Under the pieces are notes generated by a model. It saw only the letters and a list, made by a program, of their open reading frames with translations, was not told the DNA's origin and did not search any database. From an uncultured virus (IMG/VR IMGVR_UViG_2846068587_000001) (Duplodnaviria > Heunggongvirae > Uroviricota > Caudoviricetes): a DNA stretch of 20,000 nt. The stretch lies in the IMG/VR virus record IMGVR_UViG_2846068587_000001; one strand, 5' to 3'. Below are positions 1-20,000 of this stretch, piece by piece. The first letter of the stretch is position 1; the number at the start of each line of letters is the position of its first letter. Made by a program: the position numbers and the translations under genes.

Positions 1-2
1 GT

Positions 3-512
3 GAGGCGCTGCTACGCGCCGCGATCCGCTTTTGTCGAGAGTCGTTGATCAGTCGGGAGACGCTGACCTTCGGCAGCCTTCCGGCGGGGGAGATCGTCGT
101 TTTGACCCCCGCCGAGCCGGAGCAGATCATGAGCCGTCTCTTGTCCGCCACCGCCTGCATTAATGCACAGAAGGCGGCGCTGTGGCATGGCGATGGCTTC
201 GCCCTGCTGGCGGAGAGTCGCTTACGTCTGGATCGGGCGGTAGACCGCCTGTGGGTCCGGATTGCGACGGAGCCCAGCGCCACGGCGGTCACGCTGCCGT
301 CAGTGCTATTGGCCTACCAGGATGCGCTGGCGGCGGGTGCCTTGATGCAGCTCTATATGATGCCGGATAAGCCCTGGAGCGATGTGCAGCGGGCGGACTA
401 TTACCGGATACGTTTCATCGAGGGGTATCGCGAGGCGTTTCGCAGTAGCAGCGAGGCCGCCCCGGATGAGACCGGTTTTCATAATCCCCCACGTCGGCAC
501 GCGTTTTTTTGA
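3..512 (+). CDS. Phage virion protein, probable head-tail adaptor-like; 5'-truncated by the window
   Basis: The frame is open from position 3 (EALLRAAIRFCRESL...), so the true start lies upstream of the window. Its stop overlaps the next ATG (TGATG, 510-514). It sits just upstream of the tail genes. Confidence 0.65.
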   Translation, partial: EALLRAAIRFCRESLISRETLTFGSLPAGEIVVLTPAEPEQIMSRLLSATACINAQKAALWHGDGFALLAESRLRLDRAVDRLWVRIATEPSATAVTLPSVLLAYQDALAAGALMQLYMMPDKPWSDVQRADYYRIRFIEGYREAFRSSSEAAPDETGFHNPPRRHAFF

Positions 513-1174
513 TGACGACCATCGCCGATGTGATTGGCCGGGTGAATACCCAGCTGAAAGATACCCTCTGGGCGCGCTGGCCACTGGCTGAGCTGTGCGA
601 CTATTTCAACGATGCCCTGTGCGCCATTTTACTGGTGCGTCCTGAAGCCGGTGCCGAGCTGGCGCACTTGCCCTGTGTTGTCGGAACGCGCCAACAGCTG
701 CCTGCCGGTATTTTCCGCTTATTGGAGATTGTCCGTGTTCATGATGGCCAGGCGTTGTTACCCGTTCCGCGCGAGGTGCTGGACAGCCAGTACCCCGATT
801 GGCATCAACTGACCGGCCCCGTAGAGCGCTATTGCTACAGCGATAAAACCCCGTTGATTTACTACCTGTTTCCGGGAGCGGCGGAGGCGTTGATGTTGGA
901 GGCGGTGGTGTGCCGCACGCCGACCGCCGTGAGCATTACCACCTTGCAGGATGAGACGGCGCAACAATCCGTACCGCTTGACCCGGTGTACATCAATCCA
1001 CTTATCGATTGGATGCTGTATCGCGCTTTCAGTAAAGACAATGAGGGCGGCGCCAATGTGGCGTTGGCAATGCAGCATTATCACGTCTTTGCCGAGCAGT
1101 TGGGTATCAAGCAGCGTAGCGATGCGCTGCTTCGTCAGGCGTTGCGTAATCAGTATCTGGGAGGTGAGTCTTGA
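512..1174 (+). CDS. Phage adaptor-like virion protein (DUF6682-like)
   Basis: 220-aa ORF with ATG coupled to the upstream stop. Motifs '[14 protein letters not shown]...RPEA' and '[13 protein letters not shown]' resemble the conserved gene preceding the tail fibre in 933W-like podophages. Confidence 0.7.
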
Positions 1175-3972: not shown

Positions 3973-3987
3973 TTCAAGGTTCTGCGC

Positions 3988-5613: not shown

Positions 5614-7178
5614 ATAAACGGCGAGCCTTTCGGGCCGGACGTAACCTAGAGGCGGTATATGAAAACATCGAGCTGATAACCGGCCAACGTGGTGATGGTC
5701 AGGATCGCGCCATTACGGCCCGTGATTTGGTGGCATTGGGACTCGCGCGCTTGGGGCGCGCACCAGGCGGGCAGTTTCAACCGTTGCCGGGCGTGGATCC
5801 GGGGATTATTTCCCGTGACGGTGTAACGGGTGGCTTTGGTCAGGTCGATTTTCCGCCACCACCCGAGGCGTTGCAGGCGCATGGGGGCTTTAGTGCGGTA
5901 CTGCTGGAATGGAAAATCCCGCGTTACCGAGGCCATGCGTTAACGGAGATTTACCGCCATAGCGAAGATAATCTGGCCGATGCCGTTCTCGTGGCGACCT
6001 CGGTTTCGACGCTGTATGGCGACCCTGTCGATCCAGGGTGGCAAGGCTTCTACTGGGTCCGCTTCGTCAACATCGCGGGGGTGGCAGGGCCATTCAATGC
6101 GAGCGCGGGGACGCCCGCCCAAACCAGCCCTGAGATAGGTGTGGTGGTGTCGCTGATTGAGCGTGAGATTAATGACTCTCCCTTGATATCGGAATTAGCC
6201 GCTGAACTGGAAAACGGTCAACAGGCACTGATTGAAACAGGTGAGCGCCTAACTACCGTTGATCGCGATGGTAGCCAGGCTTTCCAGGCCCTATGGAGCC
6301 AGAAAAGTCGCGTTGGTGAGATTAGCGCTGGTATCGGCATCGTCGCAGGCAGCGATGCGCAAGGGAATCCCTTGAGTCAGGTGGCGATTGCCGCCAATCA
6401 GTTTTTTGTCTTTGACCCCAATAATCCCAACGATGACGGCACCTACGCGTTCCCCTTTGTCGTGGATGGGACGAGTGGCCGGGTCATCATGGCGAAGGCG
6501 GCGATAGAGCAGGCGACGATCCAGATTTTACAGGCACAACGTATTGTGGCGGATGAGGTCAAGGCTGGGATTTCGCTCAGTGCGCCCCAGATCACCGGCG
6601 CGCAGATTTTTGCTTCCGCCATCACCAGTTTAGGGAATCCTCCTCGCTTCGCCTTGACGCCCGATGGGGGGCTGTTTGCGCGTCAGGCGGATATCAGTGG
6701 TCACATCAATGCTACCAGTGGCCGTCTGAGTCGCGTCACCATCGATGAGACATGCGATGTCAAAGAGATCCGCGCCGAAACCATCAAGGGCGATATCGTC
6801 AAGGTCATCACGCTGAGACTTGGCATGCCGTTGCAGATCAGTGCCGCCCCCTTTGATCGCCTACTGTTTGCCATGCCAGTGGCGGCCCATGGTACGACCT
6901 CGACCAGTACCACCAGTTCAGGGAGGGAGGGGCGAGATAGAACTAGTACCAGCTACTCTGGGACGCGAATAGGCATCAACATCAATGGCCGAGAGGTGGT
7001 GGTTGCTGACCAATTTGGCTCAGGGGTCGATGTAGGGACGGCTATCGAATCCATCCCCGCTGCAACGAATATTACGCTGGAGTTGTGGGTTGAAAAGAGG
7101 AATGGCAATTCTACGCGACGTTATACCGATGACCAGACTATCTCAATGACGCTCAATTGCCTGCTGTACAAGGCTTAA
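5610..7178 (+). CDS. Tail tip / host-specificity protein (FN3-like region plus DUF1983/lambda-J-like C-terminal part)
   Basis: FN3-like 'FYWVRFVNIAGVAGPFN'; DUF1983-like 'AIAANQFFVFDP...FPFVVDG...AAIEQATI'; J-like 'ARQADISGHINATSG...VTIDETCDV...IKGDIVK'. Confidence 0.8.
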   Translation: MNKRRAFRAGRNLEAVYENIELITGQRGDGQDRAITARDLVALGLARLGRAPGGQFQPLPGVDPGIISRDGVTGGFGQVDFPPPPEALQAHGGFSAVLLEWKIPRYRGHALTEIYRHSEDNLADAVLVATSVSTLYGDPVDPGWQGFYWVRFVNIAGVAGPFNASAGTPAQTSPEIGVVVSLIEREINDSPLISELAAELENGQQALIETGERLTTVDRDGSQAFQALWSQKSRVGEISAGIGIVAGSDAQGNPLSQVAIAANQFFVFDPNNPNDDGTYAFPFVVDGTSGRVIMAKAAIEQATIQILQAQRIVADEVKAGISLSAPQITGAQIFASAITSLGNPPRFALTPDGGLFARQADISGHINATSGRLSRVTIDETCDVKEIRAETIKGDIVKVITLRLGMPLQISAAPFDRLLFAMPVAAHGTTSTSTTSSGREGRDRTSTSYSGTRIGININGREVVVADQFGSGVDVGTAIESIPAATNITLELWVEKRNGNSTRRYTDDQTISMTLNCLLYKA

Positions 7179-7220
7179 GTCTAACCGGCGCATAAACGGC
7201 TGGAGCCCGAAGGCATAGTG

Positions 7221-7592
7221 ATGAAACCGACCCTCGATGCGCGCATTCGACGTGCCGCCGCCGCTGATGGCGGCCAAGAGCTGATCGATGAGATTAATCA
7301 GGCTTGCCGTCAGGGACGGGCGTTTTGTATCGGATCGGCGCAGGTGCGCATCGTACTGCGTTTACGCTTTCGGGATGGCGAGCCCTATGTGGTGGTCTGG
7401 TTGGCCGCCAGCACGTTACACGATGGGGTGCGGCGTTATACCCCACTGATCCAGGCAATGACGCGCCAGGTCGGCGGCCGTTGGGCGGAGTTTGCCACGC
7501 GGCGCCGGGGATTTCTTCGCTTGGCTCGGCGGTTGGGTTTTGAGCCCCTGGCCGAGGAAGAGGGGTTGTTACGCTTTAAAATTCCGCTTTGA
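7221..7592 (+). CDS. Conserved phage protein, possibly GNAT-fold head-assembly type
   Basis: About 123 aa; the C-terminal 'FATRRRGFLRLARRLGF' resembles GNAT-like podophage proteins located between tail and ejection genes. The start could be GTG 7218 or ATG 7221. Confidence 0.55.
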   Translation: MKPTLDARIRRAAAADGGQELIDEINQACRQGRAFCIGSAQVRIVLRLRFRDGEPYVVVWLAASTLHDGVRRYTPLIQAMTRQVGGRWAEFATRRRGFLRLARRLGFEPLAEEEGLLRFKIPL

Positions 7593-7602
7593 GGAGACGG
7601 TC

Positions 7603-8178
7603 ATGGGTAAAGGCGGTAGTCGTGAAATTAAGGAGACCTCGCAGGAAAAGGCGGCGGCGGAGGTCGCGATGGCGCAGTGGAAGCTCTACCAACAAGAGTT
7701 GAGCCCCTTTGAAAATCTGTTTATGCGTCAGGTGGATGAGCTGGATAAGGAGAGCCAATACACACAGCGGGCGGGAGAGGCCAACCTAGGGTATCAACAG
7801 GCGTTCGGCCATGCTCGCCAGCAGACGGCGGATAGCTTGCTGGCGACGGGAACCGATCCGGGCAGCGGTAAGTTTCAATCTGCGTTGCAGAACAACACGA
7901 GCGATCAACTGGTGGGGCAGATCGATACCCGCAACCGGGCGCAGAGTAGCCAGCAAGATCGTTATATTGCTGGCCTGCAAGATGTGGCGGCCATCGGTGG
8001 CGGGCAGAAGGCGCTCGCGCTGAGCGGCTTTAACGATATTGCCGATGTGGCGCAGAAGCGTGCCGCCAACGATGCCTATCGTCATCTCAATGATCAACTG
8101 GCGTTAGGCGGTGCCGTCGGCACCGGACTCGGCATGGCGACGCGTTTCTATGGCATGCCGAATAAAGAGAGAACGTAG
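7603..8178 (+). CDS. Probable ejection/internal virion protein
   Basis: Start reassigned to ATG 7603 (MGKGGSREIKE...) with SD GAGGAG at 7591-7596. 191 aa, Gln/Ala-rich helical, with a Gly-rich hydrophobic C-terminus. Confidence 0.65.
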   Translation: MGKGGSREIKETSQEKAAAEVAMAQWKLYQQELSPFENLFMRQVDELDKESQYTQRAGEANLGYQQAFGHARQQTADSLLATGTDPGSGKFQSALQNNTSDQLVGQIDTRNRAQSSQQDRYIAGLQDVAAIGGGQKALALSGFNDIADVAQKRAANDAYRHLNDQLALGGAVGTGLGMATRFYGMPNKERT

Positions 8179-8214
8179 CGATGTGACGCGAGCGCGTCGC
8201 GAGAGGAGACGCAC

Positions 8215-8595
8215 ATGGGATGGGCATCCGATACCTTTGCCGATCTGACCCGCCAGCAATATCAGGATTGGCGAGAGCGGTTTTACCCACGGCTGAAAAC
8301 CTTGATGGAGCAGGCCTCAGGGGAGGCGTTGCTGGACCGCCAGCTTGGCCGGGCGGATTGGAATACACAGAATTCATTGCGTTCGGCGTTGAGTGCGCAG
8401 ACCAACCAGATGGCACGCTATGGCACACCGCTCGGGCAGGAGGCGCAAGATCATCGTCTTGGCCTGCGAACGGCCTTGGCCCATGCGGGTGCCAAGAACG
8501 GGATCCGTGAGGCGGCGCGCTCGCGTCAGTTCGCTATCTTGACCGGCGGAGCATCGGGCATTCGGGAGCAGGTGAGCGTGGGAGGAGACCGATAA
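8215..8595 (+). CDS. Phage hypothetical protein, probable internal virion protein
   Basis: 126 aa with SD GAGGAG upstream; tightly packed in the operon. Confidence 0.65.
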   Translation: MGWASDTFADLTRQQYQDWRERFYPRLKTLMEQASGEALLDRQLGRADWNTQNSLRSALSAQTNQMARYGTPLGQEAQDHRLGLRTALAHAGAKNGIREAARSRQFAILTGGASGIREQVSVGGDR

Positions 8596-8596
8596 C

Positions 8597-8857
8597 ATGG
8601 GATATGGATTGATTGACGTGGGCGCACAGACTCGGAGTCAGGCGCTGCAAGGGCTCAGGCAGAGCGCCGAGCGTGAGGAGCAGCGCAATATGCTCAATAA
8701 ACAGATACGCCAGCAGCGTCAGGCCGGAAGGATGACGGCGACGGGAACGGCCGCCGGGCTGGGGGCGGCGCTAGGCATGGGCACCAGCGTTGGCGGGCCG
8801 GTAGGCGCGGTGATCGGCGGCGTATTGGGACTGTTGGCCTCAAGTTTATTTTCCTGA
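8597..8857 (+). CDS. Small glycine-zipper membrane-type virion/ejection protein
   Basis: 86 aa; C-terminal GxxxG zipper 'GTAAGLGAALGMGTSVGGPVGAVIGGVLGLLASSLF'; SD GGAGGAG upstream. Confidence 0.7.
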   Translation: MGYGLIDVGAQTRSQALQGLRQSAEREEQRNMLNKQIRQQRQAGRMTATGTAAGLGAALGMGTSVGGPVGAVIGGVLGLLASSLFS

Positions 8858-8869
8858 CGGGAGGGCACG

Positions 8870-10309
8870 ATGGGTATTCAGGGTCTAGCGGAGGGGCTGC
8901 TGGCCGGTTTCAACGCCGCCGATCATGCGTTGAATCGCCGTGAGGCGTGGCGTAGACAAGAGGCCGAGAGTCAACGTCACCAGGCGAATAGCGATCGCCT
9001 GTTCACGCAGGCGAAGGAGCAAATGGATTGGAACCACGCGTATCAGCAGCGCCAGGAGGCCAGGGAGGATAAGCGTTGGGCGATGGGACAAGCCTTGGAT
9101 CGTGAGCGTTTGGCGTTGATGAAGGCGGATCACGCGGAGCACCGAGCGCAGCAGATGAGAGATCGGCGCACGTTACAGGAGATGCCGCTGGTTAAAGCGG
9201 GCTATGACGCGCTGCAAAACGGGCAGTATGAGCAGGCTAATCGCATTTTCTCACAGGTCTCTACGGACAGCCCACTGCACCCGGTACACTATTTTGGCCA
9301 GCAGCCGGTCGGCGTGGCGAAAGCGATCATTCAGGATGTGCCCAAAGTGCTAGCGGGGGAGTTGGATTACAACAGCCCCGACGCGATGGCGATATTGAAT
9401 CAGGTCTTCGCCGCCGATCTGAAACGTAGCATTGGTCAGACTGATCCCGACAGCGGCAAGAAAATCACCGATAGCCAGCTGATACACCTGGGGCGAAGCG
9501 AAGATCAGCAGGGTTTTATCGGAACCCTCCAGATCACCTATGACGATGGCTCCTCTGCCGAGAAGCCGCTGACCCGCAATGGCTCTAGCGACCCACGGGA
9601 TACCGTACCGATTATTCCGGTCAACGATCTGCTGGGGGGGCTGTACAACTATGTGCGTACCGTGGGTTATATCAACCAGCCGCAGCAGGTCGAGTTTATG
9701 AATCGTCTGGTTAACCCCGAGTCGGCTCCGCAAGAGGATAACCGCATGCTACGTGACTACCAGCGTTATGCCTATGAGCTGGACAAAGAGGAGGCCGGTG
9801 CATTGGTCGGTCTTGAGAAGCAGGACAGCCGGGCAGAAACGCAAGCTTATTATGACGGGCTGCGGGCACGGCTCGCACAACGTTTCGGTTATCACACGGA
9901 GGATGACCCGTCAGCGCAAGCCTTGCCCGCCGCGCTCCAGAGCTGGGCGGGGAGCGATGCGTCGAAGCAGGCCTTCTTGCGTGAGGGACACCAGCGCGGC
10001 GTACTGCCGGCAACGGTGACCCCGCGTCAATTGGACGCCATGTATGCCGATGCCCAATCGTTGTCGCAGAGTCCAGAAGGTAAGGCGCGGGCGTTTGCCC
10101 AAGAAAGCGATGACGCGTTGGATCGTAAGGCCGCTTTCCTGCGTAGTGATTTACAACATGCTACCGCGCCCGAACTCCGCTCGCGAATCGCCGGTGAGTT
10201 GATGGCACTGGAGCGGGAGTTAATGCGCCGTCAGAGCAAACCTGACCCGCGGGCGAGCCAGGAGCCCTCGCAGACTGACGCATTGTCCACGCCGTTTGAG
10301 GATCATTGA
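8870..10309 (+). CDS. Probable ejection (DNA transfer) protein
   Basis: 479 aa; N-terminus 'GLAEGLLAGF' followed by a charged coiled-coil; SD GGAGGG; directly precedes the giant virion gene. Confidence 0.65.
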   Translation: MGIQGLAEGLLAGFNAADHALNRREAWRRQEAESQRHQANSDRLFTQAKEQMDWNHAYQQRQEAREDKRWAMGQALDRERLALMKADHAEHRAQQMRDRRTLQEMPLVKAGYDALQNGQYEQANRIFSQVSTDSPLHPVHYFGQQPVGVAKAIIQDVPKVLAGELDYNSPDAMAILNQVFAADLKRSIGQTDPDSGKKITDSQLIHLGRSEDQQGFIGTLQITYDDGSSAEKPLTRNGSSDPRDTVPIIPVNDLLGGLYNYVRTVGYINQPQQVEFMNRLVNPESAPQEDNRMLRDYQRYAYELDKEEAGALVGLEKQDSRAETQAYYDGLRARLAQRFGYHTEDDPSAQALPAALQSWAGSDASKQAFLREGHQRGVLPATVTPRQLDAMYADAQSLSQSPEGKARAFAQESDDALDRKAAFLRSDLQHATAPELRSRIAGELMALERELMRRQSKPDPRASQEPSQTDALSTPFEDH

Positions 10310-10331
10310 TGGAGCCTCCTTTCCTTCCATG

Positions 10332-10354
10332 AACCGCTGATAGGCGGTTTTTTT
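10332..10354 (+). terminator. Intrinsic terminator between ejection genes
   Basis: AACCGC-tgatag-GCGGTT followed by a T run. Confidence 0.7.
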
Positions 10355-10396
10355 ACGCCTGAAATTTAGGCATTCCCCTCTAGCCGGAGGCATACC

Positions 10397-13300
10397 GTGG
10401 CGAATTCCCCTCAAGATCTGCGCCCTGAACAGCAACGATACGCTGTCGAGCGGCAGTCGTTGAATATCCAGCAACCGGATGAAGGCCTGGCGCGCTACTG
10501 GGACAGTTATGATCCCCAGAAATACTCCGGGCTTTCTGATGAGTCAGCGGAAAATAGCGGCAATATTTTTTCCGACACCGGTAATCTGCTCCTGAGTGGT
10601 GTGGCCTCTACGGCAGCCAGCCTGCGGGAAGGGGCAAGAAAGGCGATGCCAAATAGTGTCGTTTCTACTGCCGCGGATCTGCTTGCCCAAGGATTGGGTT
10701 TTGATGAAGAAAAATTTTGGCGAGACAGTCAACAAAAGGCTGTGAGTCGGTTGTCACCGGATATGCAGCAGGCGCGGGACAAGACGTTCTGGGAGAGCGG
10801 CCAGGGCTTTGGGGAGGCCTGGAGTGATCCGCGCAGCTATTTCGCCGGGGCCGTCGAGTCGCTGCCGGGTATGGTGGTGTCCATGGTACCGGCCATGAGG
10901 CTGGCTAAGCTTACCTATAGCGCGAAGGTAGCGCAGGGGGTCGCGGCGGAGCAAGCAGCGAAACAAGCAGCGCGGGTCGCCAGGTTGGCCGGAGCCATCT
11001 CGGAGGGGGTGCAGGCAGGAGGCGCGTCATCCCGTACGGTTAAAGAGACCATTTATACCCTGCCGGATGATGTATTACAGAACTCGGAGGCGGTACAGAA
11101 TATGTTGTCCTCAGGGATGAGCGTGGAGGCGATACGCCGGGCGCTGGCGGAGGATGCCTCGACCAAGGCGTTTCTCATTTCGGGGGTGGCGACGGGAATG
11201 TTCGGCGGCCAAGGCGATACGGTGATCGCCAAAATTATGACCGGTCAGCTCAAACAGGGGGTGATGAGGCGCTTTGCCAAAGGGGCGGTGGCTGAGGGGC
11301 TTTTTGAGGAAGTCCCGCAGTCGGCTCTTAGCCAGATGGCGGAAAACTATGCCTTACAATCCGCCGACCCGCAGCGCCCGCTCTCCGATGAGGTAATGAA
11401 TCAGGCGCTCGGTGGACTGGCCATCGGCGGCGTGATGGGCGGATCGCTGGCGGCGGGGAGTCGCACGGGTAAGTGGCAGGCGCAACACGATACGCAGCAA
11501 GCAAAAAACGATCAGCTGGCGACAGACGATGCCGCAGGGCCAACAGAGGCGCAAGCGCAGGAGGCCTATTCACGCTATCAAACGCAGTTTGCGTCGTTGG
11601 ATCGCGACACGCTGTTACAGCATTACGCCGAGGCCGATCTGTCTGAGGCGCCGGATGCGGCAGAGAAAAAACGCGCGGCCCATGAGCGACTACAGGCGCT
11701 AGAACATGACGAGGAGGTCAAGAAGGCGGCGAAGGCGTTGCGCGGGTTACCTCGAACCGATCTGCTGGCGCAGTACCATACGCTGAATGAAAAGGCGACG
11801 CGCACGGCGACGGAGCAGCTACAGTGGGAGGCGGCCCGTTGGCTTCTGAGGCAGCGGATGGCCGCGGCGACCCCACGGACTTCAACGAGTGCGGCATCGG
11901 GGGATGGGGTGGAACAGGAGAATGCGGCACGGGAGGATTTGCGGACATGGCAGGCCGCCCCCTTATCTGACCAGCATATCCGCGGGGGCCCTGAATCTAT
12001 GAACGAGGCCCGCTGGCTAGGGGCCCCTCCCGATCCTGCTGTGGTGCAAGCGTCATGGCCGGAGGAAAAAACGGTCGAGCTTTCCTCGCAGCCAGCTTAT
12101 CAGCGACGCGATCCACGGATTCAGGGTTTTGCGGAGGATAGCCCGTTACAACAAGTGTTATCTCAGCCTGGGGCACCTTCGGCGATAGAGCTGGTCCAGG
12201 CGCAAATGCAGCGTGGTGAGCAGGGGCTGACGCCTGATGAATGGAGGACGCAATTACAGGCGGAAGAGTCCCGCCAACAGCGAGCGCCCCGGTTACCCGC
12301 GCCGGGAGATATTTCACCGGGAAGGGGATTTCCGCTACCGGGCCCGGTGGCGCAGGTGGACGATAGGCCAGCAGGGTCTGAGCCAGAGTTTTCTGCGGGG
12401 GTTCGCACGGTTTTACGTCCTGGCGAAGCGGACTCACCAGGCACGGCACAGAGGGCTGCGCAATCATCAACAAATCCTGCGTCAACGTCTGAACAGCGTG
12501 CCGTGGTTATGCCCACGTCGATGGAGCCGCAGGCTAGCGGGCAGCCTCCGTCTGTGGTACCGCCGGACGATAAGGGGGCTCGCGTCGAGCGGGATATCCC
12601 GGCATCGACCGAGATCGCGCCGGAGCCACGCCAGAAGACGTTTTATTCACACCAGCCCGATCGTCCGAACGGTAGCTTATCTTTTGAGCGCGTGTCGCAG
12701 ATTGTCCAAGATTTTGAACAGGAGTATAAGGGTAATATCCCTATAGAGATTAGGGTTTACCGGCGTCAGGAGGATGCATATGGACCACAAGCCACCAGAG
12801 AAAACGTTGGACGTATTGCCGGAGCCTTCCACGGAGGGGCAGGACGAAGGGCAGTATCTCGATATCCCGATGCGAGTAACGCGCTTCGAACCGCCGCCGG
12901 CACCCTCCACGGAGGGAGAGGGCAAGTATCTGGAGATCCCCGAACTGATAACGTTACGCGACCCTCCTTTGTCTTGGTCAACGCCGCCAGCATCCGAGAC
13001 GAAGCCGATGCAAGACGTACCCTGCGACACGAAATCCTCGGCCACTTCGGCCTCAATACCTTTACGCCAGCGGATAAAAGACAGATTTTGGACGCGATTA
13101 TGGCGGCGCAAGGAGAAAAAGAACTAAGCACGTTGTGGAATGAGGTCAGACGTGGCTACTCCCATAAGTCTCAGTCTATCCAGGCTGAAGAGGTGTTTGC
13201 CTTAGCCGCCGAGCAGGAGCGAAAGGAGCGCGGCGTCCGTTCTGGGCGGCGTGTTATCCCAGCTCGCGTATTACATCTTGTGCAGAAGGGATTACGCCGC

Positions 13301-16300
13301 ATCGGACTGGTCACGGGAGGCATGAGGCTTGGCGAACTGTATGATGCCGTGGATGCAATTTCTGAAGGTATTCGACATGGTCATCGTCAGCAACAGATCT
13401 TCCCGGTGGATGATCATGCGCAGTTTAAGCGGGAGGAGGCTGACGTTGCCGACGGGCGTACGCTGCCGCATCCGGCTCAGCGCCCGCCTTGGCCAGACGA
13501 TTTCCCCGATGTGGTGCTCCATGCCCGGCTGGGGGGCGCGACGGGCCATCCTGACTACACGGCGGCCAAAAACGGGGATAAAGACGCTGCTTACAGGTTG
13601 GTTGCTGATGTGCTTAATAAGGCTGCCATCGACGATATCAGGAGTATCATCGGTAACCACCGCGTAGTGTTGACCGCCGTTCATGCCGAAGAGGCGAGCG
13701 GACGTAATAAAATTCCGTTGGCGATGGCTGAGGTATTGGGAAAAGTTCTGCATCAAGAGGTCGATAGCGGCATCGTGCAGACTGTGCGAGTGGGGCGCAG
13801 CGGAATGGATGGTTTTGCTCGCCTAGCCAATCAACCCAGTTTCGCCGGAGAGGTGCGCCGCGATGCGCACTATTTCATCCTGGACGATACCCTGACGCAA
13901 GGGGGCACCTTGGCCGGATTGCGGGGGTATATCGAGGCGCAGGGGGGCCAGGTGATCGGCGCCTCGGCGTTGACGGGTAAAATGTATTCAGCAAAAATGG
14001 CGTTATCGGCATCGACATTGTCGCGCCTGCGCGTCCATTTTGGAGGGAGCAACCTTGAAGCGTGGTGGAAACAACAATTTGGCTACGGTTTCGACGGACT
14101 CACCGAGTCCGAAGCCCAGTACCTCCTTCGTGCCGGGGACGCTGACGCCATCCGAGATCGCCTCCTTGCAGCGCGACAAACGGGAGGCTCACCAGTATTA
14201 CCAGAAACTACTGGAGACGGTAGACCTCTCCCACCTGATGTAACCAACCGCTCTGCGCAAAACGCCTCCCAACACGGAGGCGTTTCTGTTTTAGGCGAGG
14301 ATAACCGGCTGACGGAGACGGGACACAGCCCAGAAGTCGCCAGCGGGAATAACCCGATCCCACAGATTAATGCCGTCGTGCGGGGCGTCCTGCGCAAGCT
14401 GAATGCGCCATCGCTGCATGTGCGGGTCGTGCAGACGCAGAAAGAGGCCGAGCCCTTGGCCGGTGAACCGCTGGAGCAATACGGCAAGGTTCACGCCTTC
14501 TACCGCCCACAGTCGCGGGAAATCGTACTGATTGCCGATAACCTCCCTACGCCGCGCATGGTGCGGGAAAAACTGCGCCATGAAGTGATCCATCACGCCT
14601 TAGAGCAGGTGATCACGCCCGAGGAGTACCAACGCATCATTGACCGGGTGATGGAGACCCGAGCGAGCCGAGATGCGGTGATCCAACAGATTTGGCGCCG
14701 AATCGATGCCGCCTATGGACAGGAGTCGGTCGCGGTACAGGCCGGGGAGTTTCTGGCCCACATGGCAGAAAAACAGATGCCGGGCCGCTTTAGCGCGTTA
14801 TGGGATCGGGTCGTCTCACTGATCAAAACGCTCCTCAACCGCATCGGGCTGCTGCCTACGGTCGATGCCGAGAATCGCATCTATCTACGAGATACCTTAC
14901 GCACCTTGGGTCAGCGGCTACGCCAGGGGTATCGACCGACCGGCTCCGCCACATCAGCCGATGTCCCCAACGCGAAGGCGTCTACACCGCAAGAGCCCCT
15001 CAATCCGCTGGCTGACGATGTGCGCAATAATCAGTCCCGTTACTCGCGTGAGGGCAGCGCCCTTGAGCAAACGATACGGCGTAAAATGGGACTCGAACCT
15101 GAACATGGCTGGGGCGATAAGGCGCACGATTTCTACCGTGATTGGAAGGCCCAGAGTCCATCGGCGCGTCGGGCATGGCTGCGTGATCTGGGACGGCGCT
15201 TAAATACCGCCACCTTTGATGGCCTGGCACCGATCAAATATGCCGAAGCGAGCCAAGGCAACGTGGAGGCGGCCCGTTCGGCCTATATCGCCGCGCGCCT
15301 GGCCGCCGGCGCCAATACGGTGATGGCGGCGACGCTGGAGCATGGCCTACCTGTCTACAATCCGCAGAGTGGCGTCATTGAGCGCAAGGCGGGCAGCGGC
15401 AAATCGGATGCCTTGCTGGGGATCTTGGATGCGCTGGGGAAACACCGCGAGGACTTCTTTATTTGGATTGCCGGGCATCGCTCCGAACGCCTGATGCAAG
15501 AGGGGCGAGAGAAGCTGTTCAGCGCCGATGAAATTCGCCATATGAAGGCACGGGATCGCGGCAAGGAGACGCTCTTTGCCCAGCAGAAGGTAAAGTATGA
15601 CGCGCTGGTCAAATCCCTATTGGATTTACAGCAGGCCACCGGACTTATCGATCCCGAGCGCCGAGCCGTGTGGGAGGATGCCTGGTACTTACCTTACTTT
15701 CGCCAGACCGAGGATGGCGGAGTATTGGGGCCTTGGTCTACCCGCGGGATCGCCAACCAGCGCAGCACCGTACGGCGTCTGAAAGGGGGTGAGCAGGCGA
15801 TCAACGATCCGGTCGAGAATCTGGTGAATTACGTGGCGCGCGCCATCGATGCGGCGATGAAGAATGAGGCGATGCGCCGGATGGTGGTCAATCTGGCGGA
15901 TAGCGGCGTAATTGCGGTGATCGAGAAACCCAATCGTATCGACTATCAGCGCCTAGGTAAGCGCCAGGGCGTGGCCAAAGTCTATCTGGAGGGCGAGGAG
16001 CAACTGGTCGAGGTGAGCGATCCGGCGTTATTCCGCGCCATCACCATGATGGATATGGAGCGCAGCAATGCCTTGTTTATGCGTGCCGCGCGTCAGGCTA
16101 AACGCATTCTGACCATCGGCACCACCAGCATGCCCGATTTTATCATCCGCAACTTTATGCGCGACTCGTTGCATTCCTGGGCCATCAATCCGGATGGGGT
16201 CCGCGCCGTCACCAGCGCCTGGGCCGGGCTGAAAAAAGCCTACCGCCAGGATGATACGCTGATCGAGATGATGTTCGCCGGTGCCACCTTTGGCGGCGGC

Positions 16301-17635
16301 TATGCCAACGCCTATGATCCGGCCAGCACCGCACAGAGTCTGCGCGCTATCCTGCGGCGCAAGGGGTACAGCGACAGCCAAGCGCGCCAGTTCGAATCCA
16401 CTATTCTCCGCGATGGGCAGGACGTATTACGCCGATTAGGTGGCGTCTGGTCGCGCTATCGCCACCTGAGCGAGGCGGCGGAGAATGCTAACCGCGTCGC
16501 GACGTATCAGGCGGCGTTAAAGGCGGGTAAGGGCAGAGCTCAGGCGGCCTATGAGGCGCGCGATTTGATGGACTTCAGTATGCAGGGGGCGGCGAAGAGC
16601 ATGATCGTCCTGACGGACATGTTGCCCTTCTTCAATGCCCGTATGCAGGGGCTGGGCAAGTTGGCGCGTGCGGTAAAAGCCGATCCACAGGCGGTATTGA
16701 AGCGGGGCGGCCTGATCGCCGCCGCCTCCGTGGCGCTGTTGGCGGCCAACTGGGATGACGATCGTTATGAGGCATTGCCGGATTGGGATAAGGATATCTA
16801 CTGGCATTTCTTCATCGGCGATCAGCACTTCCGTCTGCCGAAGCCGTTTGAGATTGGGCTGATGTTCGCGACGCTACCGGAGCGGATGATCCGCGCCATC
16901 GGCGGGCAAGAGAGCGGGAAAAAATTCGCCAAACTGGTGGCGCACAATTTCATGGAGCAGCTGGCGTTTAATCCCATTCCCCAGATCGCACTGCCGCTGG
17001 CCGAGAACCTGGTGAACTATGACTTTTTTAGCGGAAATCCCATCGAGGGAATGGCCGATGCCAATCTGCTCTCTGGCGCCCGCTATGATCAGCGCACCAG
17101 CCTGCTGGCCCGCCAGATCGGCGAGCAGTTGGGTTGGTCACCGAAGAAGATTGACCACCTGATCACCGGCTATACCGGCACCCTGGGCGCCTATGTGCTC
17201 GGGGCGATGGATATCGTGCTGCGCGGCATGGGGGATTACGGCGAACGCCCGGCGCTGCGCGTCGATGAGCTGCCGGTGATCAAGTCGTTCCTGCGCGGAT
17301 CGGCTGCGCCGAAATCAACCCAGTACAGCGACGATTTCTACCGCATGATGCAGCAGGCCAACCAGGTTTATGGCACGGTGCAGCGCTGGAAACGGGAGCG
17401 CCGGCTACAGGATAGCCGTGCGCTACAACGGGAGCAGCGCCACATCTTAGCCAGCCGGCCACGGCTTAACCGGACGCAGCAGCAGGTACGCCAGCTAAAC
17501 AGCCAGATCCAGATGATACAGCTGCACACCCGCCTCAGCGCCGAGGAGAAACGCCAGCGCATCGACAAGCTACTGGCGCGCCGCAACCACATCGTCCAGC
17601 AGGCGGTGAAGCGGATGAATCGGTGGTTTGAGTAG
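10397..17635 (+). CDS. Large polyvalent virion/ejection protein (zincin-like domain, phosphoribosyltransferase, second zincin-like domain, LPD38-like C-terminus)
   Basis: 2412 aa with SD GGAGG. Motifs: 'RHEILGH' (about 13028-13045), PRPP-binding loop 'FILDDTLTQGGTL' (about 13874-13912), 'RHEVIHH' (about 14579-14596), and LPD38-like 'DDDRYEALPDWDKDIYWHF...FRLPKPFEIG'. The N-terminal region is Gly/Ala-rich and membrane-interacting-like. Confidence 0.85.
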   Translation: MANSPQDLRPEQQRYAVERQSLNIQQPDEGLARYWDSYDPQKYSGLSDESAENSGNIFSDTGNLLLSGVASTAASLREGARKAMPNSVVSTAADLLAQGLGFDEEKFWRDSQQKAVSRLSPDMQQARDKTFWESGQGFGEAWSDPRSYFAGAVESLPGMVVSMVPAMRLAKLTYSAKVAQGVAAEQAAKQAARVARLAGAISEGVQAGGASSRTVKETIYTLPDDVLQNSEAVQNMLSSGMSVEAIRRALAEDASTKAFLISGVATGMFGGQGDTVIAKIMTGQLKQGVMRRFAKGAVAEGLFEEVPQSALSQMAENYALQSADPQRPLSDEVMNQALGGLAIGGVMGGSLAAGSRTGKWQAQHDTQQAKNDQLATDDAAGPTEAQAQEAYSRYQTQFASLDRDTLLQHYAEADLSEAPDAAEKKRAAHERLQALEHDEEVKKAAKALRGLPRTDLLAQYHTLNEKATRTATEQLQWEAARWLLRQRMAAATPRTSTSAASGDGVEQENAAREDLRTWQAAPLSDQHIRGGPESMNEARWLGAPPDPAVVQASWPEEKTVELSSQPAYQRRDPRIQGFAEDSPLQQVLSQPGAPSAIELVQAQMQRGEQGLTPDEWRTQLQAEESRQQRAPRLPAPGDISPGRGFPLPGPVAQVDDRPAGSEPEFSAGVRTVLRPGEADSPGTAQRAAQSSTNPASTSEQRAVVMPTSMEPQASGQPPSVVPPDDKGARVERDIPASTEIAPEPRQKTFYSHQPDRPNGSLSFERVSQIVQDFEQEYKGNIPIEIRVYRRQEDAYGPQATRENVGRIAGAFHGGAGRRAVSRYPDASNALRTAAGTLHGGRGQVSGDPRTDNVTRPSFVLVNAASIRDEADARRTLRHEILGHFGLNTFTPADKRQILDAIMAAQGEKELSTLWNEVRRGYSHKSQSIQAEEVFALAAEQERKERGVRSGRRVIPARVLHLVQKGLRRIGLVTGGMRLGELYDAVDAISEGIRHGHRQQQIFPVDDHAQFKREEADVADGRTLPHPAQRPPWPDDFPDVVLHARLGGATGHPDYTAAKNGDKDAAYRLVADVLNKAAIDDIRSIIGNHRVVLTAVHAEEASGRNKIPLAMAEVLGKVLHQEVDSGIVQTVRVGRSGMDGFARLANQPSFAGEVRRDAHYFILDDTLTQGGTLAGLRGYIEAQGGQVIGASALTGKMYSAKMALSASTLSRLRVHFGGSNLEAWWKQQFGYGFDGLTESEAQYLLRAGDADAIRDRLLAARQTGGSPVLPETTGDGRPLPPDVTNRSAQNASQHGGVSVLGEDNRLTETGHSPEVASGNNPIPQINAVVRGVLRKLNAPSLHVRVVQTQKEAEPLAGEPLEQYGKVHAFYRPQSREIVLIADNLPTPRMVREKLRHEVIHHALEQVITPEEYQRIIDRVMETRASRDAVIQQIWRRIDAAYGQESVAVQAGEFLAHMAEKQMPGRFSALWDRVVSLIKTLLNRIGLLPTVDAENRIYLRDTLRTLGQRLRQGYRPTGSATSADVPNAKASTPQEPLNPLADDVRNNQSRYSREGSALEQTIRRKMGLEPEHGWGDKAHDFYRDWKAQSPSARRAWLRDLGRRLNTATFDGLAPIKYAEASQGNVEAARSAYIAARLAAGANTVMAATLEHGLPVYNPQSGVIERKAGSGKSDALLGILDALGKHREDFFIWIAGHRSERLMQEGREKLFSADEIRHMKARDRGKETLFAQQKVKYDALVKSLLDLQQATGLIDPERRAVWEDAWYLPYFRQTEDGGVLGPWSTRGIANQRSTVRRLKGGEQAINDPVENLVNYVARAIDAAMKNEAMRRMVVNLADSGVIAVIEKPNRIDYQRLGKRQGVAKVYLEGEEQLVEVSDPALFRAITMMDMERSNALFMRAARQAKRILTIGTTSMPDFIIRNFMRDSLHSWAINPDGVRAVTSAWAGLKKAYRQDDTLIEMMFAGATFGGGYANAYDPASTAQSLRAILRRKGYSDSQARQFESTILRDGQDVLRRLGGVWSRYRHLSEAAENANRVATYQAALKAGKGRAQAAYEARDLMDFSMQGAAKSMIVLTDMLPFFNARMQGLGKLARAVKADPQAVLKRGGLIAAASVALLAANWDDDRYEALPDWDKDIYWHFFIGDQHFRLPKPFEIGLMFATLPERMIRAIGGQESGKKFAKLVAHNFMEQLAFNPIPQIALPLAENLVNYDFFSGNPIEGMADANLLSGARYDQRTSLLARQIGEQLGWSPKKIDHLITGYTGTLGAYVLGAMDIVLRGMGDYGERPALRVDELPVIKSFLRGSAAPKSTQYSDDFYRMMQQANQVYGTVQRWKRERRLQDSRALQREQRHILASRPRLNRTQQQVRQLNSQIQMIQLHTRLSAEEKRQRIDKLLARRNHIVQQAVKRMNRWFE
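12780..13127 (+). CDS. Putative nested (+1 frame) 115-aa protein within the giant gene
   Basis: SD AGGAGG (12768-12773) is 6 nt before ATG 12780. An internal duplication has changes mostly synonymous in this frame. Candidate promoter TTGTCC-17-TATAAG at 12702-12730. Confidence 0.55.
   Translation: MDHKPPEKTLDVLPEPSTEGQDEGQYLDIPMRVTRFEPPPAPSTEGEGKYLEIPELITLRDPPLSWSTPPASETKPMQDVPCDTKSSATSASIPLRQRIKDRFWTRLWRRKEKKN
14055..14243 (+). CDS. Putative nested (+1 frame) 62-aa protein overlapping the end of the PRTase domain
   Basis: SD GGAGGGAG (14042-14049) precedes TTG 14055. Helical-looking 'LTPSEIASLQRDKREAHQYYQKLL'. A terminator hairpin begins 17 nt after the stop. Confidence 0.55.
   Translation: MKRGGNNNLATVSTDSPSPKPSTSFVPGTLTPSEIASLQRDKREAHQYYQKLLETVDLSHLM
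14260..14292 (+). terminator. Intragenic intrinsic terminator inside the giant gene
   Basis: Perfect 10-bp stem AAACGCCTCC-caacac-GGAGGCGTTT followed by CTGTTTT. Confidence 0.65.
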
Positions 17636-17667
17636 GAATAGTCTGGTTTTTGATTCAAAATCAAAGA

Positions 17668-17693
17668 ATAAAACCCGCAGTAGCGGGTTTTAT
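17668..17693. terminator. Bidirectional intrinsic terminator between the late operon and the convergent cargo cassette
   Basis: ATAAAACCCGC-agta-GCGGGTTTTAT, with A and T tracts on both sides. Confidence 0.88.
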
Positions 17694-17706
17694 GGTGCTT
17701 CTAGAC

Positions 17707-17850
17707 TTATTTTTTAGTCGTGCAGTTGCATAGCGGAATAGGGAAAGGTTTCCCTTTTTTGGCGTGTCGAACAACCCCATCTACACATGTAGTGTAGCGG
17801 AATATGATCTCACAGGAGCTTCCACATTTGCGACAGGTTCCCATTGCCAT
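17707..17850 (-). CDS. 47-aa Cys-rich microprotein (not in the ORF track)
   Basis: Manual translation: MAMGTCRKCGSSCEIIFRYTTCVDGVVRHAKKGKPFPIPLCNCTTKK*. Purine-rich SD-like AGGGA upstream; ends just before the terminator; shares a motif with the 46-aa neighbour. Confidence 0.75.
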   Translation of the reverse strand: MAMGTCRKCGSSCEIIFRYTTCVDGVVRHAKKGKPFPIPLCNCTTKK

Positions 17851-17888
17851 AGCGTTGGTTTCCCTGCATACCTGTAAACCCATACAGA

Positions 17889-17917
17889 TTGCGATTTGTT
17901 GGGAGAACCGCTAGACT
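17889..17917 (+). promoter_or_regulatory. Sigma70-type promoter for antisense RNA A
   Basis: TTGCGA-17 nt-TAGACT. Confidence 0.55.
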
Positions 17918-17923
17918 GCAACT

Positions 17924-18027
17924 CGTAGAGGTTGGTTGAGTGTAGCGGTGGGTTTCCTCCATACACACTGGAAAATTTCTCAGATTTTCCAGTCCCTAAG
18001 CCCTGTTACTAGCAGGGCTTTGATTTT
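17924..18027 (+). ncRNA. Putative cis-antisense sRNA A (about 100 nt; ends approximate)
   Basis: Promoter upstream; internal 10-bp hairpin at 17967-17993; terminator AAGCCCTG-ttactag-CAGGGCTT-TGATTTT at 17998-18027. Complementary to the leader of the 47-aa ORF. Confidence 0.5.
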
Positions 18028-18031
18028 CGAG

Positions 18032-18172
18032 TTACGAATAGCGATATTTTGATACTGGAATCTTAATTGGAAAGGCAGTTAGCCCTTTCTGGTATGCAAA
18101 GATTCGTTTGCCCTTCACTGTAATGAAAGGGCGGTAGATCGTGATGTATTCTTCAGCATTCGTAATTGTCAT
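18032..18172 (-). CDS. 46-aa basic microprotein
   Basis: Start reassigned to ATG 18172 (SD AGGT): MTITNAEEYITIYRPFITVKGKRIFAYQKGLTAFPIKIPVSKYRYS*. Confidence 0.75.
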   Translation of the reverse strand: MTITNAEEYITIYRPFITVKGKRIFAYQKGLTAFPIKIPVSKYRYS

Positions 18173-18197
18173 GGTTTTTACCTGATAAGTTTTGCTG

Positions 18198-18225
18198 TTG
18201 ACAAAACCTAAAGCAAGCGTATACT
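18198..18225 (+). promoter_or_regulatory. Near-consensus sigma70 promoter for antisense RNA B
   Basis: TTGACA-16 nt-TATACT. Confidence 0.65.
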
Positions 18226-18231
18226 GCAACC

Positions 18232-18296
18232 GCCAAGTTATTCGTATTCGCTTACGATAGGATAAGCCAGCGACAGCATTACGCTGGCTTTTCGTT
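18232..18296 (+). ncRNA. Putative cis-antisense sRNA B (about 65 nt; ends approximate)
   Basis: Strong promoter upstream; terminator AAGCCAGCG-acagcatta-CGCTGGCTT-TTCGTT at 18264-18296. Complementary to the leader of the 46-aa ORF. Confidence 0.5.
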
Positions 18297-18855
18297 AACT
18301 ATATCTAGTATTTGCATTTTTTTGCTTCCAGGTTATAGCTGCCTGCTTGCTAACTCCAAAGATGGTACTGATGTCGTCTTCAGACATCGACGGGGTAACT
18401 AATCTGGCATCGATAAGGAAGTGACTAGCAAAAACATCAGCTTGCCATTCGCTATCTTCGTATATTTTATGTCCTCCAGGAACTTTGTCTCGGGCATAAG
18501 CTATCTGATTTCTATGCATTATCAGGTGCCCTAACTCATGCGCAACAGTAAAGCGGGCATGTTTATCGCCATCGCATAAAGCGTCATAGATGGATTGCTG
18601 TAACACAATTTTATTTTTATCTGGATAGGTTACAGCATAACGTCCTGGTAAGTTATGGTCTTCTACAATTTCTAGGTTAATGATCTCTGATTGCATGAGC
18701 GCTTCTAAAATAACCTCTAGCTTAAGATACGGCTTGTTTGTTATCTGAAGCATTTCTCTGAGGTTATCCCTGAAGTAATGTGCGTAAAATTTGATCTTGT
18801 TATGACTTAGAGGTGAAACGCGATGGCCAAGTTCTCGTTTCGCAGTGATCATCAT
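18295..18855 (-). CDS. ImmA/IrrE family (M78) zinc metallopeptidase
   Basis: 'ARFTVAHELGHLIMH' (HExxH), 'EWQADVFASHFL', and a C-terminal HTH-like 'ISTIFGVSKQAA'. Coupled to the HTH gene by a TGATG overlap. Confidence 0.93.
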   Translation of the reverse strand: MMITAKRELGHRVSPLSHNKIKFYAHYFRDNLREMLQITNKPYLKLEVILEALMQSEIINLEIVEDHNLPGRYAVTYPDKNKIVLQQSIYDALCDGDKHARFTVAHELGHLIMHRNQIAYARDKVPGGHKIYEDSEWQADVFASHFLIDARLVTPSMSEDDISTIFGVSKQAAITWKQKNANTRYS

Positions 18856-19205
18856 CAGTCCTTCAACATTTCATTGAGTTTATCTACCTGTTCAGGACTT
18901 AGTCCCTTAAACTTACGAGCAAAAGCAAGCATTAACTCTTTGTTTTGGTCTTCAGTGTTAGACATATCTACCTTTAGAGATGGCTGAGAAAGTTCAGCTT
19001 GTCTCTTCAAAGTCTCTAGTTCTTGGTCGCTTAATTTAAAATTAGTTGCTAATGAATGTATTAGGGAATCGGGAATGGCTCGCTTACCTAATTCGATTGC
19101 TGATAGATATGCTGAACTAACCCCAAGCATATCAGCCATGTTCTTGAGAACCATACCCCGGTCTATCCTCAGTTTTCTGAGAGTCTTACCAAAGCTAGTT
19201 ACCAT
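18855..19205 (-). CDS. XRE-family helix-turn-helix transcriptional regulator
   Basis: Start reassigned to ATG 19205 with SD AGGAGG; 116 aa; 'FGKTLRKLRIDRGMVLKNMADMLGVSSAYLSAIELGKRAIP'. Confidence 0.93.
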   Translation of the reverse strand: MVTSFGKTLRKLRIDRGMVLKNMADMLGVSSAYLSAIELGKRAIPDSLIHSLATNFKLSDQELETLKRQAELSQPSLKVDMSNTEDQNKELMLAFARKFKGLSPEQVDKLNEMLKD

Positions 19206-19233
19206 GTTGTGCCTCCTACATATCTCTTTATAC

Positions 19234-19262
19234 GTTATACAGAAAGCAAAACTCAATTTCAA
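19234..19262 (-). promoter_or_regulatory. Candidate sigma70 promoter of the HTH-peptidase operon
   Basis: TTGAAA-17 nt-TATAAC on the minus strand, 28 nt upstream of the ATG. Confidence 0.5.
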
Positions 19263-19506
19263 CAAAATCTGTAGAATAATTTCTCTGAACATGTGGATTC
19301 ACTCTACTCCTAAAGAGTCGGCCAAGCAAGACTGATTGATAAAAAACCCTACATATTGTGCTTGTTATGATTATGATTACATATATATGGTTTTTTTCCT
19401 AGTGTAAAGAGACTAGTGCCGCAAGTTCCCTCCCTCCTAACCAGGTCCTCTTCATTAAAGACTTCGAACGCAACACATCACCCTAGATCATGCCCCCTGT
19501 TGTAAC

Positions 19507-19554
19507 CGACAACAGTGGGGTAATGCTCGACAACACACGACAACACACGACAAC
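19507..19554 (+). repeat. Four CGACAAC direct repeats, candidate integrase arm-type sites
   Basis: Copies at 19507, 19528, 19538 and 19548; the last three have a 10-bp period. Located near the inferred att junction. Confidence 0.6.
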
Positions 19555-19849: not shown

Positions 19850-19860
19850 TTGAAGTGGAT

Positions 19861-19963
19861 AAAAAAAGACCTGACACGATTCCTGTATCAGGTCTAGGGG
19901 AATGGCTCTTGTGGAGAGCCGTGCGCTAAAAGTTGGCATTATGCAGGCATGGATCGCCTTGCC
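19861..19963 (-). ncRNA. sdsR: SdsR (RyeB) small RNA
   Basis: The reverse complement GGCAAGGC...GCCTGCATAATGCCAACTTTTAGCGCACGGCTCT...GAGCCATT...ATACAGGAATCGTGT...GGTCTTTTTTT matches enterobacterial SdsR as I recall it. A sigmaS-type -10 (cTACGAT) lies at 19969-19975. Confidence 0.9.
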
Positions 19964-20000
19964 TATTAATCGTAGTGCATCTGTGGCGTTTTGCCAGTGA

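Follow-up and report, generated by a model that had tools for sequence, protein, structure and literature searches.

What is the unit that repeats behind the repressor and peptidase genes at one end of a prophage, and what might it do there? The question is raised by a 20,000-nt stretch of DNA from an uncultured virus of the Caudoviricetes (IMG/VR record IMGVR_UViG_2846068587_000001), hereafter the window, in which genes for an XRE-family helix-turn-helix (HTH) repressor and an ImmA/IrrE peptidase are followed by two microprotein open reading frames (ORFs), each behind a structured leader. A first-pass annotation had proposed a new system in which the HTH-peptidase pair governs a tandem array of antisense-gated modules. 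We found that the repeating unit consists of a hairpin, an antisense promoter, a structured leader and a microprotein, and that this module is widespread, real and, as far as we searched, undescribed: a known control logic, newly arranged around a protein family that is itself new. Sequence comparison established gene order, coding selection, the antisense promoter and compensated helices; that the module is a portable, promoterless type I toxin-antitoxin (TA)-like unit, riding the transcript of the preceding operon, is a proposal to which we give an even chance. The AT-richer minus-strand cassette (GC content of 0.407 in 17636-19469, compared with 0.595 in 1-17635) was recovered in the order first described, from HTH and peptidase genes through a leader with a 46-aa ORF and a leader with a 47-aa ORF to a terminator (Table 1).

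Table 1. Features of the cassette and its surroundings (positions are those of the window)
Feature	Position	Strand	Remarks
Microprotein 1 (ORF1), 46 aa, isoelectric point (pI) 10.0	18032-18172	-	No transmembrane segment; predicted three-stranded beta-sheet
Microprotein 2 (ORF2), 47 aa, pI 9.5	17707-17850	-	Same predicted beta pattern
Hairpin 1 of module 1	18261-18293		Inverted repeat; + strand terminator of antisense RNA 1
Hairpin 1 loop on mRNA	18278-18273	-	Complementary to loop of ribosome-binding site (RBS) hairpin
Predicted antisense RNA 1, ~62 nt	18231-18292	+	Promoter, fold z -3.4; ends inferred
Antisense promoter 1, TTGACA-16-TATACT	18198-18225	+	11/12 consensus; p 0.01 vs 100 shuffles
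RBS hairpin of ORF1	18180-18209	-	Adjoins/partly covers RBS; loop 18198-18193 partners hairpin 1
Hairpin 1 of module 2	17998-18020		Closes module 1; terminates antisense RNA 2
Predicted antisense RNA 2, ~100 nt	17923-18027	+	Fold z -3.1; covers pseudoknot partner 17949-17955; ends inferred
Antisense promoter 2, TTGCGA-17-TAGACT	17889-17917	+	Best antisense site of leader; below scan threshold
Hairpin upstream of ORF2 RBS	17872-17887		Loop 17882-17876 is pairing partner of 17955-17949
XRE-family HTH repressor, 116 aa	18855-19205	-	Pfam HTH_19 E 8e-10, also HTH_3
ImmA/IrrE (M78) zinc peptidase, 186 aa	18295-18855	-	Peptidase_M78 PF06114 E 3e-10
Candidate operon promoter, TTGAAA-17-TATAAC	19234-19262	-	Read from sequence; no call in consensus scan
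Imperfect palindrome over -35, candidate XRE operator	19258-19276		Binding inferred
Terminator	17668-17693		Common to cassette and convergent LPD38 gene
AT-rich exchangeable cargo cassette	17636-19469		Between LPD38 gene and end of prophage proximal to the attachment site (att)
LPD38 polyvalent protein, 2,412 aa	10397-17635	convergent with cassette	
Tail fibre, tail-tip and adaptor genes	late region		

Substitution patterns indicate that both ORFs are real genes under strong purifying selection. Against nine relatives, ORF1 had proportions of synonymous differences (pS) of 0.81-0.95, which are saturated, and of nonsynonymous differences (pN) of 0.05-0.26; for ORF2, the ratio of nonsynonymous to synonymous rates (dN/dS) was 0.03-0.11 in 12 of 17 pairs, those that were unsaturated. 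The expected conservation of these ORFs was confirmed by a hidden Markov model (HMM) search, in which a profile built from 38 members, run against 1.84 billion clusters at 50% identity, retrieved 1,501 proteins at E<=0.001. All 42 members examined were short (36-60 aa) and basic (net charge +3 to +11) and had no transmembrane segment; their maximum 19-residue hydropathy was 0.83, short of the transmembrane character of known type I toxins. Neither microprotein had a significant match in Pfam, NCBIfam or PADLOC, and the sole family match was that of 12 of the 38 members to phrog_33859, a PHROGs family of unknown function; the clusters returned by the ESM Atlas were all unnamed (under 0.9). A fold search with both models gave no PDB or BFVD match at E<=0.001 and none at Z>=2, which for models of 46 residues is no proof of a new fold. 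The family is mostly missed by annotation: among 30 listed matches to module 2 in E. coli, 29 had no annotated feature beneath them.

The two microproteins had been described as related and their modules as sharing a design. No BLASTP alignment between ORF1 and ORF2 was obtained, and profile comparison by hhalign was weak (P 0.011, probability 3.8%). An HMM made from four ORF2-type proteins, when run over 1,399 downstream segments, placed ORF1-family members at the top of its ranking, with E 1e-4 for the best non-self match and no unrelated segment above rank 11. Iteration from ORF2 converged on 70 segments, ORF1 among them; iteration from ORF1 never reached ORF2. AlphaFold2 models of the two proteins had a matching strand pattern (predicted local distance difference test score 85 each), and in ORF2 this pattern is framed by CxxC and CxC motifs, likely a zinc site. 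On profile and model evidence, we take ORF1 and ORF2 as distant members of one family. A covariance model of module 2 did not match leader 1, and the comparison indicates that the two leaders share a design and no common sequence family. The earlier description therefore stands as to distant kinship and leader design, and does not extend to alignable proteins or to a common leader sequence.

Common features of the leaders were examined in 57 distinct sequences, scored with an approximate sigma70 matrix against 100 dinucleotide shuffles. The best antisense site reached p<=0.05 in 40 of these leaders and the best sense site in only two, and we discarded the idea of a sense promoter within the leader. 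In 55/57 leaders the antisense -35 element begins 15-50 nt ahead of the start codon, and its position, together with the rarity of sense sites, suggests that the antisense RNA covers the 5' part of the leader and not the RBS, and that the module is promoterless. This antisense promoter is positionally conserved across phyla. In 45 of the 57 leaders the RBS was less paired once the upstream part had been shuffled, and every leader type has an element within the antisense-covered part that is complementary to the loop of a hairpin at the RBS. The cognate long-range duplex beat swapped partners in 22/23 module-2 and 22/22 Firmicutes-type leaders; in the nested structure of the latter, 16 of 30 pairs were changed on both sides. 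The leaders and predicted antisense RNAs of the window also folded better than shuffles (z -2.3 to -4.5). As in type I TA loci, a cis-antisense RNA with its own promoter and terminator is predicted to overlap the mRNA leader, and comparison, with statistics that ignore kinship, suggests that translation is locked by RNA structure and activated by long-range pairing. Rfam found only SdsR/RyeB, SraC/RyeA and tRNAs to be significant in the region and 10 related loci. Sub-threshold matches at terminators, including isrJ and sar (E 0.75, terminator region only), were rejected.

In module 1, the free 5' end of the predicted antisense RNA is the complement of the mRNA loop UUGGCG (18236-18231). A 6-bp loop-loop helix is paired in 8/8 sequences, with two pairs changed on both sides, and its pair count was reached in 1 of 500 shuffles; an earlier 5-bp version was not significant. 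In the distant locus L447, an equivalent long-range helix is present in the minimum-energy fold. Module 2 has the same design in another sequence. Its antisense promoter taken alone gave p 0.06 against shuffles, and the -10 and -35 columns are conserved in 23 leaders. The pseudoknot helix is 91% paired over 23 sequences, two pairs being changed on both sides; on four of five measures, none of 500 shuffles equalled the whole structure.

The 16 bp of the hairpin upstream of the ORF2 RBS also have the form CTGT-N8-ACAG, one base from the antisense -35 element. Measured against CTG-N10-CAG, the LexA box consensus, this form occurs in 45 of 53 module-2 leaders and in none of 100 other leaders, but the bases concerned are also those of the RNA hairpin. 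Nine of the 45 boxed leaders retain the box form despite a broken stem pair, and three leaders keep the hairpin without the box. The LexA-shaped 16-mer may thus couple module 2 to the SOS response, or may be just the RNA hairpin.

In 21 of 23 module-2 leaders (L349-L424), the first two hairpins have identical, co-varying loops. Eight loop sequences were seen, one of which is the reverse complement of another; the two corresponding loops of the window (17967-18020) differ from each other. Such twin loops could be twin binding sites, as would suit a non-toxic microprotein that binds RNA or DNA and regulates its own and the upstream operon, for example by binding to leader hairpins and so permitting terminator read-through or mRNA stabilisation. 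The basic, aromatic beta-sheet character of the protein and the fact that the module always begins at the terminator-like hairpin of the upstream operon would also agree with such feedback. However, L420 and L421 encode near-identical proteins behind reverse-complemented twin loops, which fits sense-antisense pairing better, and neither module 1 nor the Firmicutes leaders have twin loops. A harmless product would also not warrant tight silencing, and we regard feedback regulation as improbable.

How closely the module is tied to the ImmA switch was assessed from both sides. Loci fetched by their peptidase were reduced to distinct peptidases, dropping loci with an unrecoverable peptidase ORF and three with <330 nt downstream, and a subfamily was defined by a peptidase score of at least 70 bits (77 loci, window included). 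An XRE gene lies upstream in 74 of these loci, and a microprotein downstream in 70, of which 68 have the family of the window and the rest an unrelated-looking C type. None of 63 more distant ImmA-like peptidases, taken as a control set from among the matches listed in a genome-contig scan, was followed by a microprotein. The co-occurrence search thus upheld the proposed linkage to XRE-ImmA genes, with figures that describe one subfamily because the search patterns favoured its HKIYEDSEW motif. Members came from Gammaproteobacteria, Alphaproteobacteria and Firmicutes.

The reverse search gave a different view of the upstream partner. Among 168 distinct loci found by their microprotein, 128 follow an HExxH peptidase (116, a further 11 with a second, dissimilar ImmA subfamily, and one fusion), 31 follow other genes and nine have no long ORF upstream. 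The partners without a peptidase include TA or defence-like operons (HicA-HicB with a SecB-like gene, a Gp49/RelE-HigA (HigBA-like) pair and a STAND ATPase) and orphan genes. ORF2-type proteins with 85-90% identity turned up at prophage positions that bear no relation to one another and also followed HicAB-, HigBA-like and orphan genes, and the idea of a system dedicated to HTH-ImmA was abandoned on the strength of these near-identical module-2 units.

These data also bear on the alternative, already raised in the first-pass annotation, that the microprotein is a ligand or inhibitor of the peptidase. It might be an activator replacing a GAF/ssDNA-sensing domain, an inhibitor or a substrate, and feed back on XRE cleavage. 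The frequency of a peptidase directly upstream would suit this idea, as would the absence from the peptidase of the GAF domain that forms the groove for single-stranded DNA (ssDNA) in CapP, and similarities of microproteins and peptidases are correlated (r 0.55 for the 120 triplets left after thinning a set of 165). This correlation is lower than that between XRE and peptidase (r 0.75) and is explained by common ancestry. Moreover, close peptidases bear distant microproteins (L015, L344/L439), in 282 pairs the microproteins are close and the peptidases distant, and the family also stands behind the second ImmA subfamily. Since the unit is not tied to ImmA, a ligand role is very unlikely.

Several upstream partners deserve mention on their own. 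In L349:242-1140 and L437:1856-2995, HicA-HicB and a 146-aa gene precede the module; the latter is called SecB-like by size and position, with no Pfam match, and the whole is possibly a TA-chaperone system with an extra effector. Two orphan families upstream of modules, one of ~165-180 aa with a weak integrase SAM-like match (L399-L414) and one of ~300 aa with no Pfam match (L350-L369), are candidate uncharacterised defence genes. hokD adjoins two E. coli copies.

Within a single order, 10 of 401 genomes had the family; of 5,426 E. coli genomes, 86 matched part of the cassette, none matched 80% of it and 56 matched module 2. A plasmid search gave no match, and most copies found lie on prophages.

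The tandem arrangement, first regarded as the defining form, was found to be exceptional. Among 223 loci, tandems of two antisense-gated modules were detected in five. One is the window; in three related loci a C-type module with an antisense promoter of its own has been added; and the fifth, the double copy of L251, holds an N and is probably an assembly duplicate. Close relatives of the XRE-peptidase-ORF1 part of the window stop after one module, module 2 stands alone behind other operons, and homology to such single module-2 loci starts exactly at hairpin 18020-17998. The system is therefore the single module and the window a rare stack, in which two modules of different lineages are joined at the terminator hairpin; together with the other stacked loci, this bears out the proposal that modules are stackable. 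The C type, a small basic protein with a similar antisense-gated leader (L020:3202, L109:3762, L065:2523, L090:2017), was found alone behind XRE-ImmA or as a second module. Six Firmicutes loci (L054, L066, L070, L190, L211 and L256) have a second, 39-aa basic ORF (D type) after the first microprotein, preceded by a hairpin whose loop could pair with the first leader and shows compensatory changes (by eye), like a 5'-3' fold-back. The D-type ORF had no positional promoter and was rejected as a second antisense module.

The upstream part of the cassette has the gene pair of an ImmR/ImmA-type switch, adjacent XRE and HExxH M78 peptidase genes. The repressor matches the PADLOC capH model (E 2e-11), and A96-R97 in its C-terminal part are invariant among relatives. 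The peptidase carries HELGH plus E136, and its gene start overlaps the XRE stop. Its sole PDB relative is CapP (7T5T, residues 81-179 of 291), to which it aligns over the catalytic part alone. One source (PMC13228613) assigns the ssDNA groove of CapP to the GAF domain; because the peptidase of the window is GAF-less and co-directional with its output, it is better described as ImmA-like than as a member of CapP. Both -35 and -10 columns of the operon promoter are kept in nine aligned relatives, and the palindrome columns TTC.ACA and T.TTGTTGA are invariant in 9/9 aligned upstream regions. The two layers of control anticipated for the locus are therefore supported by comparison, one by the palindrome over the -35 element of the XRE promoter and the other by the conserved antisense promoter and structured leader.

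A 16-nt inverted repeat with a 24-nt spacer lies further upstream of this promoter (19341-19396), and relatives retain there a CA.ATA.TAGTG-like motif, which resembles an NrdR box. In E. coli relatives, a Bro-N gene that is absent from the window diverges from the promoter side.

We propose the following mechanism. XRE would repress the operon at the palindrome, and the peptidase would cleave XRE under stress; this first step, modelled on ImmR/ImmA for both the cleavage and its signal, is likely. The read-through mRNA would then hold the microprotein RBS in or beside a hairpin, and translation would require that an upstream element pair long-range with the loop of this hairpin. In the third step, a strong, short antisense RNA would enter at the exposed loop (UUGGCG in module 1), cover the upstream element and block the long-range pairing, leaving the RBS untouched. 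Taken jointly, the second and third steps are highly probable. In the fourth step, protein would be made only upon mRNA induction or once synthesis of the short-lived antisense RNA stops, e.g., when a phage shuts off host transcription, the event upon which hok/sok acts, or when the element is lost. Finally, the basic, aromatic beta-sheet protein would arrest growth upon binding some general target, for which nucleic acid or the translation apparatus is the most likely candidate. We judge the fourth and fifth steps, as a pair, to be evenly poised between right and wrong. A growth-inhibitory product with a general target is suggested because the gene is doubly locked, is swappable prophage cargo and is attached to several kinds of TA operon. 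The module at the ends of stress and TA operons in many bacteria is thus most likely a last-resort growth brake, with toxicity predicted.

A more far-reaching picture is offered tentatively. Modules of this kind might be promoterless, RNA-gated effector cartridges, stackable and cross-phylum, that dock at the terminators of unrelated TA and stress operons and form an AND gate of protease derepression and antisense decay. Their soluble microproteins of unrecognised fold might arrest the cell via a nucleic-acid target as new non-membrane type I toxins that sense phage take-over, and module 2 might be wired to LexA so that the prophage mutes it during its own induction.

Several observations weigh against a type I TA-like toxin. 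No microprotein was detectable in seven of the 77 subfamily loci; the microproteins, unlike typical type I toxins, are not hydrophobic; and searches of Pfam, NCBIfam, PHROGs, PDB and BFVD revealed no known toxin fold or family. Likewise, no match to Hok, TisB, TimP, Ldr, Ibs or similar toxin families was found in Pfam, NCBIfam or Rfam. Covariation in module 1 rests on eight sequences, and the shuffle controls for covariation ignore the relatedness of sequences. In one metagenome contig (L443, one of nine), an 18-nt deletion removes the module-1 antisense -10 element with the ORF intact, which may be an assembly error or a sign of tolerance.

In addition, antisense-gated small phage genes can equally be antirepressors. 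In P22, ant is kept off by the antisense RNA sar, and the microprotein could similarly be a regulator of the phage life cycle (an antirepressor or repressor inactivator), silenced by antisense RNA and switched on by the stress operon. The prophage location of most copies is in line with this, and ICEBs1 and phi105 owe their induction to ImmA pairs. In TF-smORF (transcription factor-small ORF) modules, moreover, the small protein encoded after a transcription factor inactivates a lysis repressor (10.1101/2022.09.16.508337); these modules and sar/ant share with the cassette a prophage small gene under a neighbouring regulator or a cis-antisense RNA. However, antirepressors usually track the repressor of their own phage, whereas the 85-90% identical ORF2-type proteins mentioned above do not keep to one setting. 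Unlike in P22, no Ant/Bro antirepressor family was matched in PHROGs or Pfam, and neither sar nor C4 RNA was significant in Rfam. A life-cycle regulator is therefore unlikely.

The closest parallels of the growth brake that we favour are found among RNA-controlled toxins and plasmid replication genes. The Inc antisense RNA of ColIb-P9 competes with formation of the repZ pseudoknot. This system, which controls a plasmid replication initiator, resembles module 1 in the UUGGCG target loop of leader 1, a motif named for the Inc target in the reference list of one paper (PMC10724649). In the module, no coupling to a leader peptide was seen, and the UUGGCG loop and the pseudoknot partner are separate elements, unlike in ColIb-P9. 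For timP/TimR, one report (PMC13000454) describes as proven that translation needs long-range pairing and that the antisense RNA removes it. The module shares with timP/TimR an RBS in a hairpin, pseudoknot-dependent translation and antisense binding far upstream of the RBS. TimP, however, is a toxin of the inner membrane and has its own transcript, whereas the module protein is soluble and basic and its mRNA comes from the upstream operon; unlike TimR, the antisense RNA is encoded in the leader on the opposite strand.

With ImmR/ImmA, DdrO/IrrE and CapH/CapP, the cassette shares the XRE and HExxH M78 peptidase pair, an Arg conserved towards the C-terminal end of the repressor and an association with prophages and defence (10.1101/2022.04.27.489752; PMC13228613). 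It differs in that the peptidase has no GAF domain, the genes are co-directional with the output rather than divergent, and the output is an RNA-gated microprotein; the C-terminal GAF domain and the divergence from the immune operon that those sources describe for CapH/CapP are both missing here. The HTH and peptidase of the window had weak, domain-level matches to RosmerTA (RmrA) and PADLOC candidate PDC-M69. RmrA is a fused HTH-peptidase of 360-400 aa, whereas the window genes are separate, and neither microprotein matched RmrT or another partner model in PADLOC. The earlier impression that this is not a named system thus held in Rfam, Pfam, NCBIfam, PHROGs and PADLOC.

Our literature search found no description of the module; Burroughs and Aravind 2020, which reportedly deals with small proteins in HTH-peptidase operons, and paper supplements lay outside this search and might mention the family. 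Makarova et al. 2009 predicted that the Xre-COG2856 peptidase pair, abundant in prophages, controls a third, toxic component; in the accessible part of that paper (PMC2701414), the third gene is RelE or PIN, and no microprotein or antisense RNA is mentioned. The module therefore provides a concrete candidate for the third component proposed in 2009. If toxic, the microproteins would be among the few non-membrane type I toxin families, possibly with a new target. Natural antisense/pseudoknot pairs, many and distinct in sequence, also offer a ready set for the study and reuse of RNA switches.

The window belongs to a podovirus-like prophage and covers its late region together with the right end. 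Rfam matches to SdsR/RyeB and SraC/RyeA, overlapping at 19857-20000, adjoin the prophage end, from which we infer an enterobacterial host. A single contig of sequencing run X1 (16800-19506) carries the entire cassette, and in run X3, from another study, a contig (17612-18239) covers both microprotein genes. Another X3 contig fuses 17635 to 19470 (shorter side 30 letters), and loose ends at these two positions occur in X1/X3. Contigs in independent runs argue that the tandem is no assembly artefact, and the junction marks the cassette as exchangeable cargo. One metatranscriptome run gave contigs over 18173-18479 and 18997-19183, which reveal neither strand nor transcription.

Some minor features were also observed. 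The LPD38 protein has two HExxH-like motifs and a weak phosphoribosyltransferase match. A repeat-like loose end at 19858-19887 in run X1 is consistent with prophage integration at the SdsR/SraC small RNA locus, and a 10-nt short tandem repeat at 19507-19547 varies in copy number among runs.

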